Notes under the pieces: model-generated
Databases searched by the model: none
The model's input: only the letters and a program-made list of their open reading frames with translations
What the model was told of the DNA's origin: nothing
Assembly: GCF_002075285.3 (NCBI RefSeq)
Contig: NZ_CP021983.2
Coordinates: forward strand, 4,650,001-4,682,000
DNA from: Halomicronema hongdechloris C2206
Lineage (GTDB): Bacteria; Cyanobacteriota; Cyanobacteriia; Phormidesmidales; Phormidesmidaceae
Reading direction: 5' to 3'
DNA length: 32,000 bases
Shown: positions 11,790 to 17,412 of the stretch, piece by piece
How the letters are laid out: the number at the start of each line of letters is the position of its first letter
Numbering within the stretch: the first letter of the stretch is position 1
Position numbers and translations under genes: made by a program

Positions 11790-13181
11790 ATGCCTCGACT
11801 GCCTATGGCGCCTGATGCGATGACGACCTCACCGCTGCTCCAGGTGGCGAATCTTGCCTTCACCTACATCGGCCAGCCTGGGCCAACGCTACACGACGTG
11901 CATCTGACCCTCCAGGCTGGAGAGTTGGTGGTGCTGGCGGGGGCCACGGGCAGTGGCAAGAGCACCTTGCTGAATTGCCTCACCGGCATCGCCCCGGACC
12001 ATACGGGGGGTCGCCTGTCCGGACAGGTGCTCTACCGGGGCCAAGATATTACCGCCTGGTCGATGCGGATGCGATCGCAAGTCATGGGCATTTTGCTGCA
12101 GAACGTCGAGACCCAGCTATTTACGGACCAGGTGTGGGAAGAGCTGGTCTTCGGCCTGGAAAACTGGAACCTGCCGCCGGGGGAGATCCAGGCCCTGGCC
12201 CAGACGGCCCTGGCCGACTTCGATCTGGTGGCTCAGCGACACTGGCCCATTGCCCGTCTGTCGGCGGGGCAAAAGCAGCGATTACTCCTGGCCTGTCTGC
12301 TCACCCGCCAGCCTGACCTGCTGCTGCTGGACGAACCCTTCGCCTTTCTGGATACCGCCGGGGTGAAGCAATTGCTGCGGCTGTTGCGGCGCCGAGTGCA
12401 GCGGGGGCAAACCGTCGTGCTGATCGAGCATCGGCTGGAGCTGTTGCAAGGGATATGCGATCGCGCCTATCGAGTCGAGGCCGGCACGGTTTGCCCCATG
12501 GCGGTCTCGGAGTTGGCCGCGGCGACGGTCTCGCTGCCTCCCCTGACTTCACGGCCCCGGCAAGTAGCTCGGGGACCTACGACTCCCCCTGTCCTGCAAA
12601 CCCATGGCCTTAGCTGGGGCGGCTATCCGGCTTTCCCAGACCTCAAGGTTTTCCCCGGCGACATCGTGCTGCTGCAGGGGGATAATGGCTGCGGCAAAAC
12701 CACCCTGCTGAAACTTCTGAGTGGCTTGCTCAAACCCAGCAGCGGCCGCATCTGGCTCCAGGGCCGAGAGGTCACCGGCCAGCGGGTGGTGCAAAGGTCT
12801 CAGACCGTGGGCTTCGTGCTGCAAAATCCCAATCACCAGCTGTTTGCCGACAGTGTCGCCGCCGAGTTGCATCAACCCGGGGTCGCCCCCGCCCAGGCCC
12901 AGGCCTTGCTGCAGCAGTTGAATTTGACCCCCTGCCGAGATCAGCATCCCCGGGCCTTGTCCCAGGGGCAGAAGCGCCAGTTAGCGTTGGGAGCGGTCCT
13001 GGCCCGGCAACCCCAGGTCTGTCTGCTGGATGAAATCATGGTGGGCCAGGATGCCACCTCGCTGGCGTTGATGCTGGAGACGCTGAAAACCTTTACCGAC
13101 CAGGGGGGTGCCCTGATTTTTACCTCCCACGATGGGGCCATAGCCACGGCCCTGGCCCCTGAGATCATTGCCATTGGCTGA
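11790..13181 (+). CDS. ECF transporter ATPase, two fused ABC domains
   Basis: Two Walker A motifs (GATGSGKST, GDNGCGKTT), two ABC signatures (LSAGQKQR, LSQGQKRQ) and two Walker B motifs (LLLLDEP, VCLLDEI). Confidence 0.92.
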   Translation: MPRLPMAPDAMTTSPLLQVANLAFTYIGQPGPTLHDVHLTLQAGELVVLAGATGSGKSTLLNCLTGIAPDHTGGRLSGQVLYRGQDITAWSMRMRSQVMGILLQNVETQLFTDQVWEELVFGLENWNLPPGEIQALAQTALADFDLVAQRHWPIARLSAGQKQRLLLACLLTRQPDLLLLDEPFAFLDTAGVKQLLRLLRRRVQRGQTVVLIEHRLELLQGICDRAYRVEAGTVCPMAVSELAAATVSLPPLTSRPRQVARGPTTPPVLQTHGLSWGGYPAFPDLKVFPGDIVLLQGDNGCGKTTLLKLLSGLLKPSSGRIWLQGREVTGQRVVQRSQTVGFVLQNPNHQLFADSVAAELHQPGVAPAQAQALLQQLNLTPCRDQHPRALSQGQKRQLALGAVLARQPQVCLLDEIMVGQDATSLALMLETLKTFTDQGGALIFTSHDGAIATALAPEIIAIG

Positions 13182-13363: not shown

Positions 13364-13864
13364 ATGGCCAAATCCGATCCCGCCGTCCTCAAAAGCGTCA
13401 CCGTCAGCCTGCCCTTTGGCATTGGCTCTGCCGCCTGGGAAGCAGACCCCACCGAACGCAACGCCGCCTGGGAACTCTACATCGAACTGGTGACCCGGGT
13501 AGCGGTGCAGTCCCTGGCCACCGAGGTGGGGACGGTGCGGGAAGCCATGAACTCTCTCTACAGTTTGTTTGGCTCCACCCGGGAAATCCTCCGCAAAGCC
13601 GGACCCCAGGTCGGGGCTTCGAAGGATTCGGTGGGGGGCATCGCCATCGCCGTGCTGAATAATGGCCTGCGCCCGTTTCTATCCAAGTGGCACCCGTTGT
13701 TGCAGGCCTGGGAGGTGAAGAAACCGGCTGACCTCAGCCCCCAGGCCCATGAAAAAGCCTGGGAGCAAGAGCCGGTGCTGCGGCAAGAGTTAGAAGCCCT
13801 GCGCCGCGATCTGGAGCAATATGCCGATGCCTTGGCCGATATTGCCGGTGTCCAGCATGACTGA
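13364..13864 (+). CDS. hypothetical soluble, predicted all-helical protein
   Basis: 166-codon ORF with good coding appearance and no TM segment. No family was recognised. It contains LRPFLSKWH, an R-x6-H spacing. Confidence 0.65.
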   Translation: MAKSDPAVLKSVTVSLPFGIGSAAWEADPTERNAAWELYIELVTRVAVQSLATEVGTVREAMNSLYSLFGSTREILRKAGPQVGASKDSVGGIAIAVLNNGLRPFLSKWHPLLQAWEVKKPADLSPQAHEKAWEQEPVLRQELEALRRDLEQYADALADIAGVQHD

Positions 13865-13891: not shown

Positions 13892-14605
13892 TCAGAGTTG
13901 ACTGGGATCGATACCGAGTTCCCGGAGTTTGGCAAAGGCGCGATCGCGTTCTTGCTGAGCCCGATCGCGTTCTTGCTGAGCCCGATCACGCTCCTCGATA
14001 ACCGCTTCCGGATCCTGGAAGGGGGTCCCGTTTGGATAGTAGACCGCTAAACCCTGGTCGGATAGATCGAAGCGAATGCCTAAGGTGGGAGAGGTCCAGG
14101 GAAAATTGAGCGGCAGAATGGGCGCAAACCCCTGCTCTGGAGTGGTGCGCACCAGTCCCCAGAAGTCAAAGGAGTCTGGGTCATAGAAGAACATTTCCAA
14201 CACACCGTACTTTCCATAGAAGGCCTGTTTAGCCAGCATTTCCCGAGCACTATTGTTGGGCGACAGAATTTCAAAGACCACCTGCGGCGCAATATTGTCT
14301 TCTTCCCATTGTTTATAACTGCCCCGGTCACCGTCAGGGCGGCCTAACACCACCATGACATCAGGCGCCTGAGCCGGAGCCGGCGGTGTCTCGACCGGAA
14401 TGGGATACCACAGTAGATCTCCTGCCACGAAGGCGGTTTGGTCTTTGAGTAACCGCTTAAGATTGGTGACCAGACGGACAATCCAGCGATATTGGATTGT
14501 GTTGTCAGCCATGGGGTTACCGTCTGAGTCCGGATAGAGAATTTGGGGAGCGATGGGACTATGAACCATAGACGGCCCCTTGGTTGCAGACGAGTACAGC
14601 CCCAT
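13892..14605 (-). CDS. Uma2 (DUF820) family endonuclease with repeated ERDRAQQ tail
   Basis: Matches include YPDSDGNPMADNT, PDVMVVLGRP and VVFEILSPNNSAREM (PD-(D/E)xK-like E-x-S/K context). The likely start is ATG at 14569 (MVHSPIAPQ). The C-terminus reads ERDRAQQERDRAQQERDRAFAKLRELGIDP. Confidence 0.85.
   Translation of the reverse strand: MGLYSSATKGPSMVHSPIAPQILYPDSDGNPMADNTIQYRWIVRLVTNLKRLLKDQTAFVAGDLLWYPIPVETPPAPAQAPDVMVVLGRPDGDRGSYKQWEEDNIAPQVVFEILSPNNSAREMLAKQAFYGKYGVLEMFFYDPDSFDFWGLVRTTPEQGFAPILPLNFPWTSPTLGIRFDLSDQGLAVYYPNGTPFQDPEAVIEERDRAQQERDRAQQERDRAFAKLRELGIDPSQL
13931..13989. repeat. 21-nt tandem repeat (about 2.8 copies) encoding the ERDRAQQ heptads
   Basis: cgatcgcgttcttgctgagcc appears twice, followed by a diverged partial copy. 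The first copy begins inside a HIP1 site. Confidence 0.8.
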
Positions 14606-14710
14606 TGTATCTAGGCAGTGACGCCTGAGCAGTTCATAGCGTTCTTGTAGAGGGGGGAAGGGTTAGACTTTGGACAGAATGGAGCCGGACTAGACAGGAG
14701 CAGTTGACGG

Positions 14711-15577
14711 ATGGCGGAGCAGCAATTTGATGTTTTCCTCGCCCATAGCAGCAAGGATAAGCGGCTCATTCGGCAAATCTACCGGCAGCTCAAAGCACGA
14801 GGCATTCGACCCTGGCTTGATGAAGAGGAGATTGCTCCCGGCACTAGGTTCGCAGACGAGATTCAACAGGCTATTGGTCAGATCAAATCCGCAGCTGTTT
14901 GTATTGGTCAGAGTGGATTAGGCCGCTGGCAGGTCTTAGAACTGGAGGCATTCATCAGACGCTGCGTCGAGCGAGATATCCGAGTGATTCCAGTGTTATT
15001 GCCTGGGGTTGACCGTATTCCAGATAATCTAATCTTCCTTGGCGGGTTTCATGCTGTGCCGTTTTCAACGGATATCAACGATGAGAGAGCCCTGTCTCAA
15101 CTGGTGTGGGGTATCACTGGACAAAAGCCGACCCGAGAGCCTAACAATTCTCACTCTGAGGCCGCTCCTGTTTTAGAACCAGATGATCTCAGCTCCGAAA
15201 AAGGCATTGACTATACTCACCTGCGGGACCTGCTGGCAGCAGGGGACTGGAAAGCGGCGGATCAGGAAACGGCGGATCGCATGCTTGACGCCATGGGTAA
15301 GAGCAGTTGGGGCAATGTTCCCAGCAAGGATCTACTGAACTTTCCCTGCGCTGACTTAAAGACAATCGATCGGCTCTGGGTGAAATACAGCCAGGGACAA
15401 TTTGGTTTTAGCGTGCAGAAGGATATCTACGTGGAGTGCGGGGCAAAACTCGACGGCGAATACCCAGGTGATGCGATTTGGGGCACGTTCTGCGATCGCA
15501 TCGGCTGGCGAAGAGGAGGCCAGTACATCTCCTACTCTGATGGGATATTTGACACCTCCGCACCACAAACTGTATAG
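14711..15577 (+). CDS. TIR domain - GUN4 domain fusion protein
   Basis: N-terminal TIR motifs: FDVFLAHSSKDK, LDEEEIAPG and RWQVLELEAF (candidate catalytic Glu). C-terminal GUN4 motifs: DYTHLRDLLAAGDWKAADQETADRML, NFPCADLKTIDRLWVKYSQGQFGFSVQKDIY and IGWRRGGQYISY. Confidence 0.9.
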   Translation: MAEQQFDVFLAHSSKDKRLIRQIYRQLKARGIRPWLDEEEIAPGTRFADEIQQAIGQIKSAAVCIGQSGLGRWQVLELEAFIRRCVERDIRVIPVLLPGVDRIPDNLIFLGGFHAVPFSTDINDERALSQLVWGITGQKPTREPNNSHSEAAPVLEPDDLSSEKGIDYTHLRDLLAAGDWKAADQETADRMLDAMGKSSWGNVPSKDLLNFPCADLKTIDRLWVKYSQGQFGFSVQKDIYVECGAKLDGEYPGDAIWGTFCDRIGWRRGGQYISYSDGIFDTSAPQTV

Positions 15578-15596
15578 CCCATGATTGAGGCCCAGC

Positions 15597-15839
15597 ATGG
15601 AAGTTCAGATTCAACGATGGGGAAACACGGTTGGAGTCCAAATTCCGCAGCAAATTGCGGAAAGCTTTGGGATTGATGAACACTCCATTGTAGAGCTCAC
15701 AGAATCTGAAGGTGCTCTGGTGATCCGCAAAAGGGTCTCTGTCTCGACTCTGGAGGAGTTGCTGAACAGTATTCCTGAAGACTTTCAGTATCCAGATGAT
15801 GTTGCCGACTTTGTAGAAAGCTCATCTGTGGGTCAATAA
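15597..15839 (+). CDS. AbrB/MazE/SpoVT-family antitoxin-like DNA-binding protein, with no cognate toxin gene
   Basis: MEVQIQRWGNTVGVQIPQQIAESFGIDEHSIVELTESEGALVIRK is a typical swapped-hairpin MazE N-terminal domain. The track ORF starts at TTG 15585, but ATG 15597 is more likely. It starts 19 nt after the TIR-GUN4 stop. Confidence 0.8.
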   Translation: MEVQIQRWGNTVGVQIPQQIAESFGIDEHSIVELTESEGALVIRKRVSVSTLEELLNSIPEDFQYPDDVADFVESSSVGQ

Positions 15840-16401
15840 CTGCTATGCCTGTAACGCGACCCACGCTCCAGGCAGCGTTCAACTGTTCTCCTTCCGCCCC
15901 TTGTGGGAGGAAGCATGCCTTGAGCGCAGTCGTAGTGGGTAGGGTGGGCAATATCATTGAGTAATCTCAGCACAGGAAGATAATCTTTGATTGCCCACCA
16001 TGTTTCTCAAACGGTAGGCATTGAATAGTCTAATCTCTAGATTCAGTAATGCCCATGCTACAGCACTTTACCTCTGAGTGGCTGGCACAGGAGGTAGGTG
16101 TTGGACCGCTTTAGCATGTTCGATGTCATCAATGTAGGGCACATGCGATCGCACCTCGCCCTAGGCTAGATTGAGGCAAAGAAACCCAGCATTTCCTTTT
16201 GCTTGAACTATCGCGAAGAATGATATAGCGAGTTGGGGGCCCAAGTTGCCTGCAAAAACGATAGGAGCGGCGTGCTATGCCTCTCTCAGCTGAGGCGATT
16301 GACGAACGGGCTAGCGCCCATATTGAGGCGCAGCGGAATCCTCAACGGGGGAGGCCGCACCTAATACACAGAGTGCGATGCGATTGGGTGAAGTTGCTAG
16401 A

Positions 16402-17412
16402 CTAGCCCCGTTGCTGTTCCGCATAGGCGGCATAGACCCCCTGAACGTTGTACCAGTTGAGGAAGATGCGGGCCACTTCCAGGGCCAATTGAGGCTTACC
16501 CCGGTCGATCAACCACTGCAGCAGGGGGGCCAGGGTTTTCTCATTCAGCTGTCCCCCCAGGGTCAACACGCCCCAGAGCACCCGGTGCAGCCAGGTCATT
16601 TGAATCATCAGCCTTACATCCCAGGTGGGATGTTTTTGGTAGAACAACACCCCCATGCGGCCCCGTTGGATTTCTTGGTCGATGAGCTTGGGCACCTGGG
16701 CTAGGGAGAAGGGCGGATGCCAATGGTAGCCGACGGCGTCGGGACATTTAATCAAGGTGAGGCCTAGTTGTTTCAGGCGCACTCCCAATTCCAAATCTTC
16801 CCAGCCGTAGAGGGTGAATTGGGTGTCGAAGAGCCCTGCTTGCAATAACCAGTGCTTGGCAATGGCCACGTTGCCGGTGGCGAAGTAGGCCTGGGAAAAG
16901 TCGGTGACTTTATAGGGTTCTGAGGTGGGGTCGTCGAAGTTGCAGGTATTGATGACGCGGCCATAGGTGAAGACCCGCTGCCCCAACCGGGCCTGACCCT
17001 CGACTAGGGTGGCGGCATGGCACTGGAGGAAATCGGGCAGCACCACCAGGTCACTGTCGATGAAGACGATGTAGTCGCCCTGGGCCCGATGGACCCCCAG
17101 GTTGCGGGCAGCGGCGGGTCCCTGGTGATCTTGCTGTACCAGCCGGACATGGGGAAACTGGGCCGTCTCGGCGGTGAGCCAGGCGACGGTGCCGTCGGTA
17201 GAGCCATCATCCACCACGATGATCTCGTAGCCAGCCACCGGGGTTGGATCTGGAAACTGCTGCTGCTCCATGGCCCGCAGGCACTTCTCTAGGATGGGCT
17301 GGCGATTGTAGGTGGGAATGACGACGCTGATAAACACGATTCGCTCCTGACAAGCCACCCCCAATCCTAGCGCCTTGGGGCGATTTGGGGTATTCAGGTC
17401 GCTAGGTGCCAC
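16402..17412 (-). CDS. family 2 glycosyltransferase
   Basis: Contains VVIPTYNRQPILEKCL, IIVVDDGSTDGT and FIDSDL (DxD). Its start overlaps the 3' end of the upstream gene by 11 nt. Confidence 0.85.
   Translation of the reverse strand: MAPSDLNTPNRPKALGLGVACQERIVFISVVIPTYNRQPILEKCLRAMEQQQFPDPTPVAGYEIIVVDDGSTDGTVAWLTAETAQFPHVRLVQQDHQGPAAARNLGVHRAQGDYIVFIDSDLVVLPDFLQCHAATLVEGQARLGQRVFTYGRVINTCNFDDPTSEPYKVTDFSQAYFATGNVAIAKHWLLQAGLFDTQFTLYGWEDLELGVRLKQLGLTLIKCPDAVGYHWHPPFSLAQVPKLIDQEIQRGRMGVLFYQKHPTWDVRLMIQMTWLHRVLWGVLTLGGQLNEKTLAPLLQWLIDRGKPQLALEVARIFLNWYNVQGVYAAYAEQQRG

Follow-up and report, generated by a model that had tools for sequence, protein, structure and literature searches.

Does the tight spacing of two genes in a cyanobacterial genome reflect a functional pairing, or is it the scar of a rearrangement? 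The question is raised by a 32,000-nt stretch of the genome of Halomicronema hongdechloris C2206 (hereafter the window, to which all positions given without a locus name refer), in which an open reading frame (ORF) of 288 amino acids (aa) joins an N-terminal TIR domain to a C-terminal GUN4-like domain and is followed on the same strand by an ORF encoding an 80-aa protein of the MazE/AbrB type. The stop codon of the TIR-GUN4 ORF occupies 15575-15577 and the next ATG lies at 15597, a spacing of 19 nt. In NCBI, the 288-aa product has a 100% identical counterpart from this organism named 'GUN4 domain containing transcriptional regulator', and an entry identical to the 80-aa product is named 'hypothetical protein XM38_044330'. 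We consider it likely that the locus consists of a C-terminally truncated member of the TIR-GUN4 family abutting a 286-bp degraded mazEF fragment within a low-GC accessory patch, and that the arrangement is a rearrangement scar and not a system.

A preliminary description of this DNA had recognized the TIR and GUN4 motifs of the 288-aa ORF, a Glu at the position of the catalytic Glu of bacterial TIR NADases and the MazE-like gene 19 nt downstream, and it had suggested that the two genes might form a porphyrin-sensing NADase and its antitoxin. The domain identifications are sound. The scores of the TIR_2, GUN4 and MazE_antitoxin (PF04014) models all exceed the Pfam gathering cut-offs (78 bits versus 28, 120.9 versus 29.2 and 30.8 versus 24.7, respectively; E-values in Table 1), and the last of these matches assigns the 80-aa product to the MazE/AbrB fold, with weak NCBIfam matches to MazE and ChpS. 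The proposed partnership fares differently, as the structure of the junction between the two genes indicates.

The junction was resolved by comparison with locus L002, which encodes a MazE 76% identical to that of the window. The blastn alignment of the two loci extends over 15573-15852, also at 76% identity, and the ungapped comparison (Table 1) places the homologous block at 15567-15852, with identity at chance level on both sides. The block begins with a 30-nt leader in which a GAGG resembles a Shine-Dalgarno site, continues through the mazE coding sequence and ends 13 nt past its stop codon. Because the TIR-GUN4 ORF takes its final two codons before the stop (T-V) and the TAG itself from sequence homologous to the mazE 5′ leader, the 19-nt spacing is itself a product of recombination or deletion. 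The comparison demonstrates two breakpoints. At approximately 15567, the last ~33 positions of the TIR-GUN4 profile were replaced by the mazE leader, and at approximately 15852, mazF was removed after its first 2-3 codons. No PemK/MazF gene of the kind that defines mazEF adjoins mazE, and ATGCCTGT alone is left at the expected start, where L002 reads ATGACTGT. The native promoter region of mazE is, by the same comparison, missing at this locus.

On the TIR-GUN4 side, the extent of the loss can be measured against a 323-state family profile hidden Markov model (HMM), of which the window ORF covers states 1-290, ending ~33 states short of every full-length homologue. The full-length homologues continue past ...TSAP with the motif GHLP, whose G and P are each shared by at least 90% of the aligned homologues, followed by a variable stretch rich in G, V and W and a conserved terminal motif. 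The window protein ends in ...TSAPQTV directly before its stop codon and lacks GHLP, the variable stretch and the terminal motif. No remnant of states 291-323 was detected downstream in any frame by the profile HMM, which returned negative scores only. A tblastn match of the tail of homologue P0004 at 15890-15958, on the 3′ side of mazE, was rejected as a displaced TIR-GUN4 tail; its E-value of 0.003 was obtained in a tiny database with ~100 queries, and the profile HMM was negative.

The consequences of the truncation can be judged from an alignment with SynGUN4 (1Y6I), in which the window protein (Pfam GUN4 model positions 2-119 of 141) aligns with SynGUN4 residues 85-204 of 233 and stops 2 residues later. 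The missing part comprises the equivalents of Leu207-Leu210, Arg214, Arg217 and helices alpha7 and alpha8. According to Verdecia et al. (2005; PMC1084334), canonical GUN4 is a cofactor of Mg-chelatase, and its 'cupped hand' is completed by alpha7 and alpha8, which give the palm residues Val218, Ala219, Tyr223 and Trp228; one side of the porphyrin pocket is formed by the alpha6/alpha7 loop together with these two helices. Within that loop, the pair Arg214/Arg217 binds the porphyrin carboxylates, Arg214 being essential for porphyrin binding in SynGUN4, and the Trp129-Leu130-Tyr131 segment of alpha2/alpha3 is required for the stimulation of Mg-chelatase (PMC1084334). In the window protein, equivalents of the two arginines and of helices alpha7 and alpha8 are absent, and the residues aligned with Trp-Leu-Tyr are N202-V203-P204. 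The hydrophobic palm of alpha2-alpha6 is kept, with W180, F211, L216, I219, W223, F233 and V235 aligned, in this order, with F105, F138, L143, I146, W150, F160 and V162 of SynGUN4. Without the arginines of the alpha6/alpha7 loop and without helices alpha7 and alpha8, canonical porphyrin binding and ligand gating have most likely been lost in the window copy, and the porphyrin sensing that had been suggested for this copy is not upheld.

The C-terminal half is nevertheless supported as GUN4-like, and in Foldseek comparisons it matches the GUN4 of T. elongatus (1z3x, 1z3y). It shares a homologous core with the Mg-chelatase cofactor (1Y6I; 1Z3X), whereas the N-terminal helical bundle of the latter is replaced in the window protein by the TIR domain.

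The mazE gene is, as judged from its homologues, derived from an ordinary mazEF lineage. MazE homologues at 61-68% identity are accompanied by a PemK/MazF gene of 112-113 aa that begins 8-16 nt downstream or overlaps mazE (L003-L006, L115-L117 and L120). Compared with such type II toxin-antitoxin (TA) systems (mazEF, PemIK/ChpAB), the window shares the MazE/AbrB swapped-hairpin antitoxin, whereas its toxin gene and native promoter region are gone and the antitoxin itself is 3 residues short; most of the 43 MazE homologues have 83 aa, and a premature TAA in the window, where L002 reads GAG, removes the three residues. The preliminary description had seen no MazF/PemK ORF in any frame, and this is confirmed by tblastn with the cognate toxins, which gave only chance-level matches in the whole window and none in 15840-16400, and by a MazF profile HMM (four cognate MazFs and the L002 fragment, searched against all stop-to-stop segments), which found no match after mazE. 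A 40-codon ORF at 15845-15964 had appeared by eye to be a decayed MazF N-terminus and was rejected; it lacks statistical support, and only its first 8 nt are homologous.

The closest relatives of the window MazE are likewise without a toxin. L001 (69% identity) has no mazF, and in L118 and L119 (81% identity) a DUF2283 ORF overlaps the end of mazE instead. In L002 (3249-3947), the closest long mazE locus, mazF is cut after 23 codons (MTVQRGEVIGINLNPIRGREKNG and a stop codon) and is followed by an IS200/IS605-type Y1 transposase gene, whose insertion accounts for the loss; L002 is an independent toxin loss in the same MazE lineage. A different state is found at L115:674-2975, where the order Uma2 - mazE - mazF - FGE-sulfatase surrounds a 68%-identical MazE homologue. 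This locus shares gene families with the window patch, yet its TA pair is intact.

The preliminary description had regarded its proposal as refuted if homologues of the fusion were never found next to a MazE-like gene, and this is what was found. The survey covered 108 loci, 28 from species-representative genomes and 80 from metagenomes, with Pfam scans of 106 and then 35 neighbour ORFs, which included the immediate upstream and downstream ORFs of ~30 genes with both TIR and GUN4 domains. A MazE/AbrB neighbour was present at none of the ~30 two-domain genes. A profile of the MazE lineage run over the flanks of the 108 loci gave a single weak match (E 2.9e-5); it lies in L101, ~700 nt away from a GUN4-only match. 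The neighbours of the homologues are heterogeneous and include PIN, Phd/YefM-like, DUF2283, XisH/XisI, Y1 transposase, HNH, EAD1, vWA, extra TIR and housekeeping genes. Uma2, which lies upstream of TIR-GUN4 in the window, was rejected as a conserved partner; it accounts for only 1 of the 106 neighbour ORFs. Among the closest TIR-GUN4 orthologues, two are followed after 300-440 nt by a Phd/YefM-like antitoxin ORF (L008:2513-2752 and L010:5283-5543), with a match (E ~3e-5) below the Pfam gathering score and in an antitoxin family other than MazE; these ORFs probably reflect the general density of TA genes in those genomes.

The N-terminal half of the 288-aa protein retains the features of an enzymatic TIR domain. 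Its W73-Q-V-L-E77 segment aligns with W-T-N-Y-E of AbTIR (8g83, 7uwg) and with 'WCLEEL' of plant TIR domains, and E77 is invariant in a 47-sequence family alignment. We take the Glu of the AbTIR motif to be the catalytic residue E208, whose equivalent in SARM1 would be E642. An AlphaFold2 (AF2) model built on the family alignment has a mean predicted local distance difference test score (pLDDT) of 86.8 and consists of two domains and a disordered linker; pLDDT is ~85-95 over the TIR domain and below 50 for linker residues 144-154, and the linker varies in length and sequence among the family members. The best match of the model in the PDB, as found by Foldseek, is the TIR domain of AbTir (7uxu_A; template modelling score 0.79, normalized to the target), which confirms the flavodoxin-like TIR fold. 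These comparisons support the N-terminal half as a TIR domain of the NADase type with a putative catalytic Glu, and we infer its enzymatic activity from them.

A homologue search returned 1,431 proteins at E <1e-3. The architectures were taken from the best 120 of the 1,431, nearly all of which combine TIR_2 with GUN4, have a length of ~300-350 aa and come from filamentous cyanobacteria, including Nostoc, Nodosilinea, Leptolyngbya, Calothrix and Fischerella. The window protein resembles this family in its domain order, its invariant WxxxE Glu, its GUN4-like core with the palm residues and its identity of 45-66% to many members, and it differs from the family in stopping at state 290 of 323. 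In the C-terminal 30-80 residues of homologues P0002-P0120, GHLP is separated from a terminal motif that reads SSLASRLVxC, LFSRIETCKL or LLSHRDL by 7-76 hypervariable residues, among which G, V, L, W and F are frequent; in some natural members, the tail after GHLP is as short as 7 aa. The hypervariable stretch takes the place of the canonical Arg214/Arg217 segment, and it could serve in membrane association, ligand specificity or autoinhibition. Even among 100 intact members, Arg occurs at the Arg214-equivalent position in only 12 and at the Arg217-equivalent position in 6. Because the canonical arginines are mostly not conserved across the family, protoporphyrin IX or Mg-protoporphyrin should not be assumed to be its ligand.

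Fusions of this kind have been described previously. Kaur et al. (2020; eLife, PMC7159879), citing Davison et al. (2005), reported GUN4 fused to kinases, caspases, trypsin and TIR as a likely tetrapyrrole sensor, and proposed that tetrapyrrole binding regulates the fused enzymes allosterically as a read-out of photosynthetic status. A preprint on bacterial NLR-like proteins (bioRxiv 10.1101/2022.07.19.500537) counts GUN4 among their C-terminal sensors and predicts that it monitors 'virally induced changes to photosynthesis'. The TIR-GUN4 architecture is therefore already described computationally and common in cyanobacteria, and the statement in the preliminary description that it knew of no characterized system wired in this way is not supported with respect to the fusion and the tetrapyrrole-sensor idea. 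GUN4-like domains encoded on plasmids were found exclusively in cyanobacteria, fused to NACHT, kinase, AAA-like, ankyrin and EAD-type modules, and none were found in phage records. Two further arrangements were noted among the homologues. One metagenomic contig carries tandem TIR-GUN4 paralogues of 345 and 297 aa with 59 nt between them (L047:1398-3388), and at L013:4001-5364 an ORF of 157 aa encodes a TIR domain alone, 74% identical to the TIR half of the window protein, with a 290-aa FGE-sulfatase (FGS) ORF beginning 17 nt further on; this is either a split gene or an alternative TIR + FGS architecture.

The protein was also compared with known defense systems. It shares the common TIR fold and the aligned catalytic Glu with bacterial TIR NADases (AbTIR, BtTir and the effectors of Thoeris, SPARTA and CBASS), and its own sensor would be the fused GUN4-like domain; no ThsA, Argonaute or cyclase partner was found within ~2 kb on either side. 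Thoeris was rejected, because the ThsB models gave only weak and partial matches (E 1e-4 or worse) and the flanking genes identified by Pfam scan (Uma2, MazE and a glycosyltransferase) include no ThsA. PD-T4-6 (PADLOC model PDLC04062) was rejected as well. Of the 450 model positions, the GUN4 half matches 302-418 (E 2.3e-37), and the rest of the model, including its defining part, which is presumably a Ser/Thr kinase, is unmatched; the match reflects a shared domain and not membership. The literature consulted on PD-T4-6 deals with false positives among PASTA kinases. Positions 302-418 of PDLC04062 are GUN4-like and give a strong match for any cyanobacterial GUN4-domain protein, and the model is likely a source of false PD-T4-6 calls in cyanobacterial genomes.

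How probable, then, is a functional link between the two genes? The proposal that TIR-GUN4 and the MazE-like protein constitute a non-canonical TA or abortive-infection pair, in which MazE restrains a porphyrin-gated NADase, draws on the common strand, the 19-nt spacing without a predicted terminator, the absence of a MazF for MazE to neutralize and the loss of the mazE promoter region, after which mazE would probably be expressed by read-through from TIR-GUN4. Against it stand the lack of a MazE-like neighbour at any of the ~30 two-domain homologues and across the 108 loci, the cognate PemK partner of the MazE lineage, the coincidence of the adjacency with the junction that truncates TIR-GUN4 and the missing porphyrin-binding segment. 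In addition, we know of no MazE/AbrB protein that inhibits a TIR domain. With no conserved neighbour, a lineage that has its own toxin and an adjacency created at a truncating junction, the TIR-MazE partnership suggested in the preliminary description is not borne out, and we regard it as extremely improbable. The same very low probability applies to the notion of a newly born TIR/MazE TA pair, in which a deregulated truncated NADase would have been joined by a captured, promoter-less mazE co-opted as its inhibitor.

A working stand-alone effector deserves more weight, even if we consider it unlikely. The truncated protein might be a deregulated or differently regulated NADase, or might sense through its remaining palm, with mazE as an unrelated orphan acting as an anti-addiction element or a transcription factor. 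The intact TIR domain, the family-invariant residues retained up to residue 286, the palm positions conserved with SynGUN4 and the natural members with 7-aa tails are compatible with this proposal. However, GHLP is missing here along with everything after it, alpha7 and alpha8 supply palm residues and Arg214/Arg217 in SynGUN4, and a constitutively active NADase would be counter-selected. A further explanation denies the family any role in immunity or cell death; the TIR domain would be a protein-interaction adaptor and the GUN4-like domain a housekeeping regulator of tetrapyrrole or chlorophyll metabolism. The function of canonical GUN4 as a Mg-chelatase cofactor, the housekeeping genes among the homologue neighbours and the NCBI name 'transcriptional regulator' agree with it, but the putative catalytic Glu is invariant, the family conserves neither the WLY loop nor the Arg214 equivalent, the genes of the family lie in variable surroundings with many TA, transposase, EAD1 and vWA genes, and on cyanobacterial plasmids the fusion partners of GUN4-like domains include NACHT, kinase and EAD modules. 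We consider this explanation very unlikely.

Several observations weigh against the reading of the locus as a truncated gene joined to a degraded mazEF fragment. Every family-invariant residue within the retained 286 residues is still present in the alignment with 47 homologues. Because these residues have all been kept, the gene is not visibly decaying, and it may yet be expressed and active; possibly, the truncation is recent or selection still acts on what remains. The AF2 model treats the truncated GUN4 part with high confidence, a result to be read with the insensitivity of AF2 to such truncations. Furthermore, a single genome does not reveal in which direction and in which order the rearrangements took place, and the NADase activity and ligand binding of the whole family are predictions.

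Under the rearrangement reading, the intact members of the family would be single-polypeptide sensor-effectors, which is consistent with the published predictions. A ligand bound in the hydrophobic GUN4-like palm would release the N-terminal TIR domain or allow it to oligomerize or self-associate, and the subsequent cleavage of NAD+ by the TIR domain, through Glu77, would lead to abortive infection or programmed death. In the window copy, this gating would be lost, which probably leaves an inert or at least an unresponsive protein. MazE would be an orphan antitoxin that remained after the loss of its toxin, linked to the TIR-GUN4 gene at most by read-through co-transcription and not functionally. 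The intact family, as a predicted ligand-gated, single-protein NADase suicide switch that reports tetrapyrrole or photosynthetic status in filamentous cyanobacteria, is a likelier system than the newborn pair.

The locus itself matters little, and its value lies in illustrating that tight gene spacing can mimic an operon even if it is the scar of a rearrangement. An orphan antitoxin beside an effector-like gene needs a conservation test before it is labelled a system. The TIR-GUN4 family, with more than 1,400 members and confined to cyanobacteria, is a candidate link between the status of pigments or photosynthesis and NAD+-depleting death or phage defense, and a full-length orthologue, not the truncated window copy, is the right entry point to it.

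The features of the locus are listed in Table 1. The GC content of the patch at ~14000-16400 is 50-53%, compared with 60-65% in the flanking housekeeping genes, and because of this dip the patch, with its Uma2 gene, truncated TIR-GUN4, mazE fragment and ~550 bp of non-coding DNA, is marked as accessory and island-like.

Table 1. Features of the TIR-GUN4/mazE locus, with ungapped identity to locus L002 across the junctions.
Feature	Position	Strand	Basis
TIR-GUN4 gene, 3′-truncated, 288 aa	14711..15577	+	Pfam, homologue search, family profile HMM states 1-290/323
TIR_2 domain, residues 8-132	14732..15106	+	Pfam TIR_2 E 1.1e-21; AF2 pLDDT ~85-95; Foldseek 7uxu_A
Codon of E77, putative catalytic Glu, WxxxE motif (W73-Q-V-L-E77)	14939..14941	+	Alignment to AbTIR and plant TIR
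Disordered inter-domain linker, ~residues 138-159	15123..15187	+	AF2 pLDDT; variable in family alignment
GUN4-like core without C-terminal third, residues 162-286	15194..15568	+	Pfam GUN4 E 6e-35; 1Y6I alignment
286-bp block homologous to independent mazE loci	15567..15852	+	blastn and ungapped identity versus L002
Orphan mazE (AbrB/MazE/SpoVT swapped-hairpin antitoxin), 80 aa	15597..15839	+	Pfam MazE_antitoxin E 2.8e-7
Vestige of mazF start, ATGCCTGT	15845..15852	+	Versus ATGACTGT in L002; homology ends there
~550 bp without recognizable gene, RNA or repeat; low-GC end of accessory patch	15853..16401	.	Pfam, Rfam, tRNA, repeat and similarity searches
Uma2-family gene, divergently oriented, context only	13892..14605	-	Pfam Uma2 E 2.2e-13
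Upstream of block	15507-15566		23% ungapped identity to L002
mazE leader, conserved GAGG	15567-15596		67% ungapped identity to L002
mazE coding sequence	15597-15839		77% ungapped identity to L002
Past mazE stop codon	15840-15852		77% ungapped identity to L002
Downstream of block	15853-15912		22% ungapped identity to L002

The stretch after mazE had been described as about 560 bp without a credible gene, which agrees with our searches of its 562 bp (15840-16401). No ORF with a Pfam match, no credible Rfam family at gathering or E-value thresholds and no tRNA were found there, and comparison with the collected loci, with the other parts of the window and with plasmid DNA gave no credible similarity. 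Promoter and terminator scans of this gap were at background level, and there were no meaningful repeats and no flanking inverted repeats that would delimit a mobile element.

On the other side of TIR-GUN4, the Uma2 gene is present immediately upstream as had been stated, on the opposite strand and divergently oriented. The surrounding interval is bounded by an ABC-ATPase gene (11790-13181) and a GT2 glycosyltransferase gene (16402-17412). Between the ABC-ATPase gene and Uma2 lies a 166-aa ORF (13364-13864, + strand) that has no Pfam, NCBIfam or PADLOC match. The 3′ end of the Uma2 gene contains a 21-bp tandem duplication (13938-13980) with one base differing in the second copy (95% identity), so that the heptad ERDRAQQ occurs twice in the helical tail at the C-terminus of the protein.

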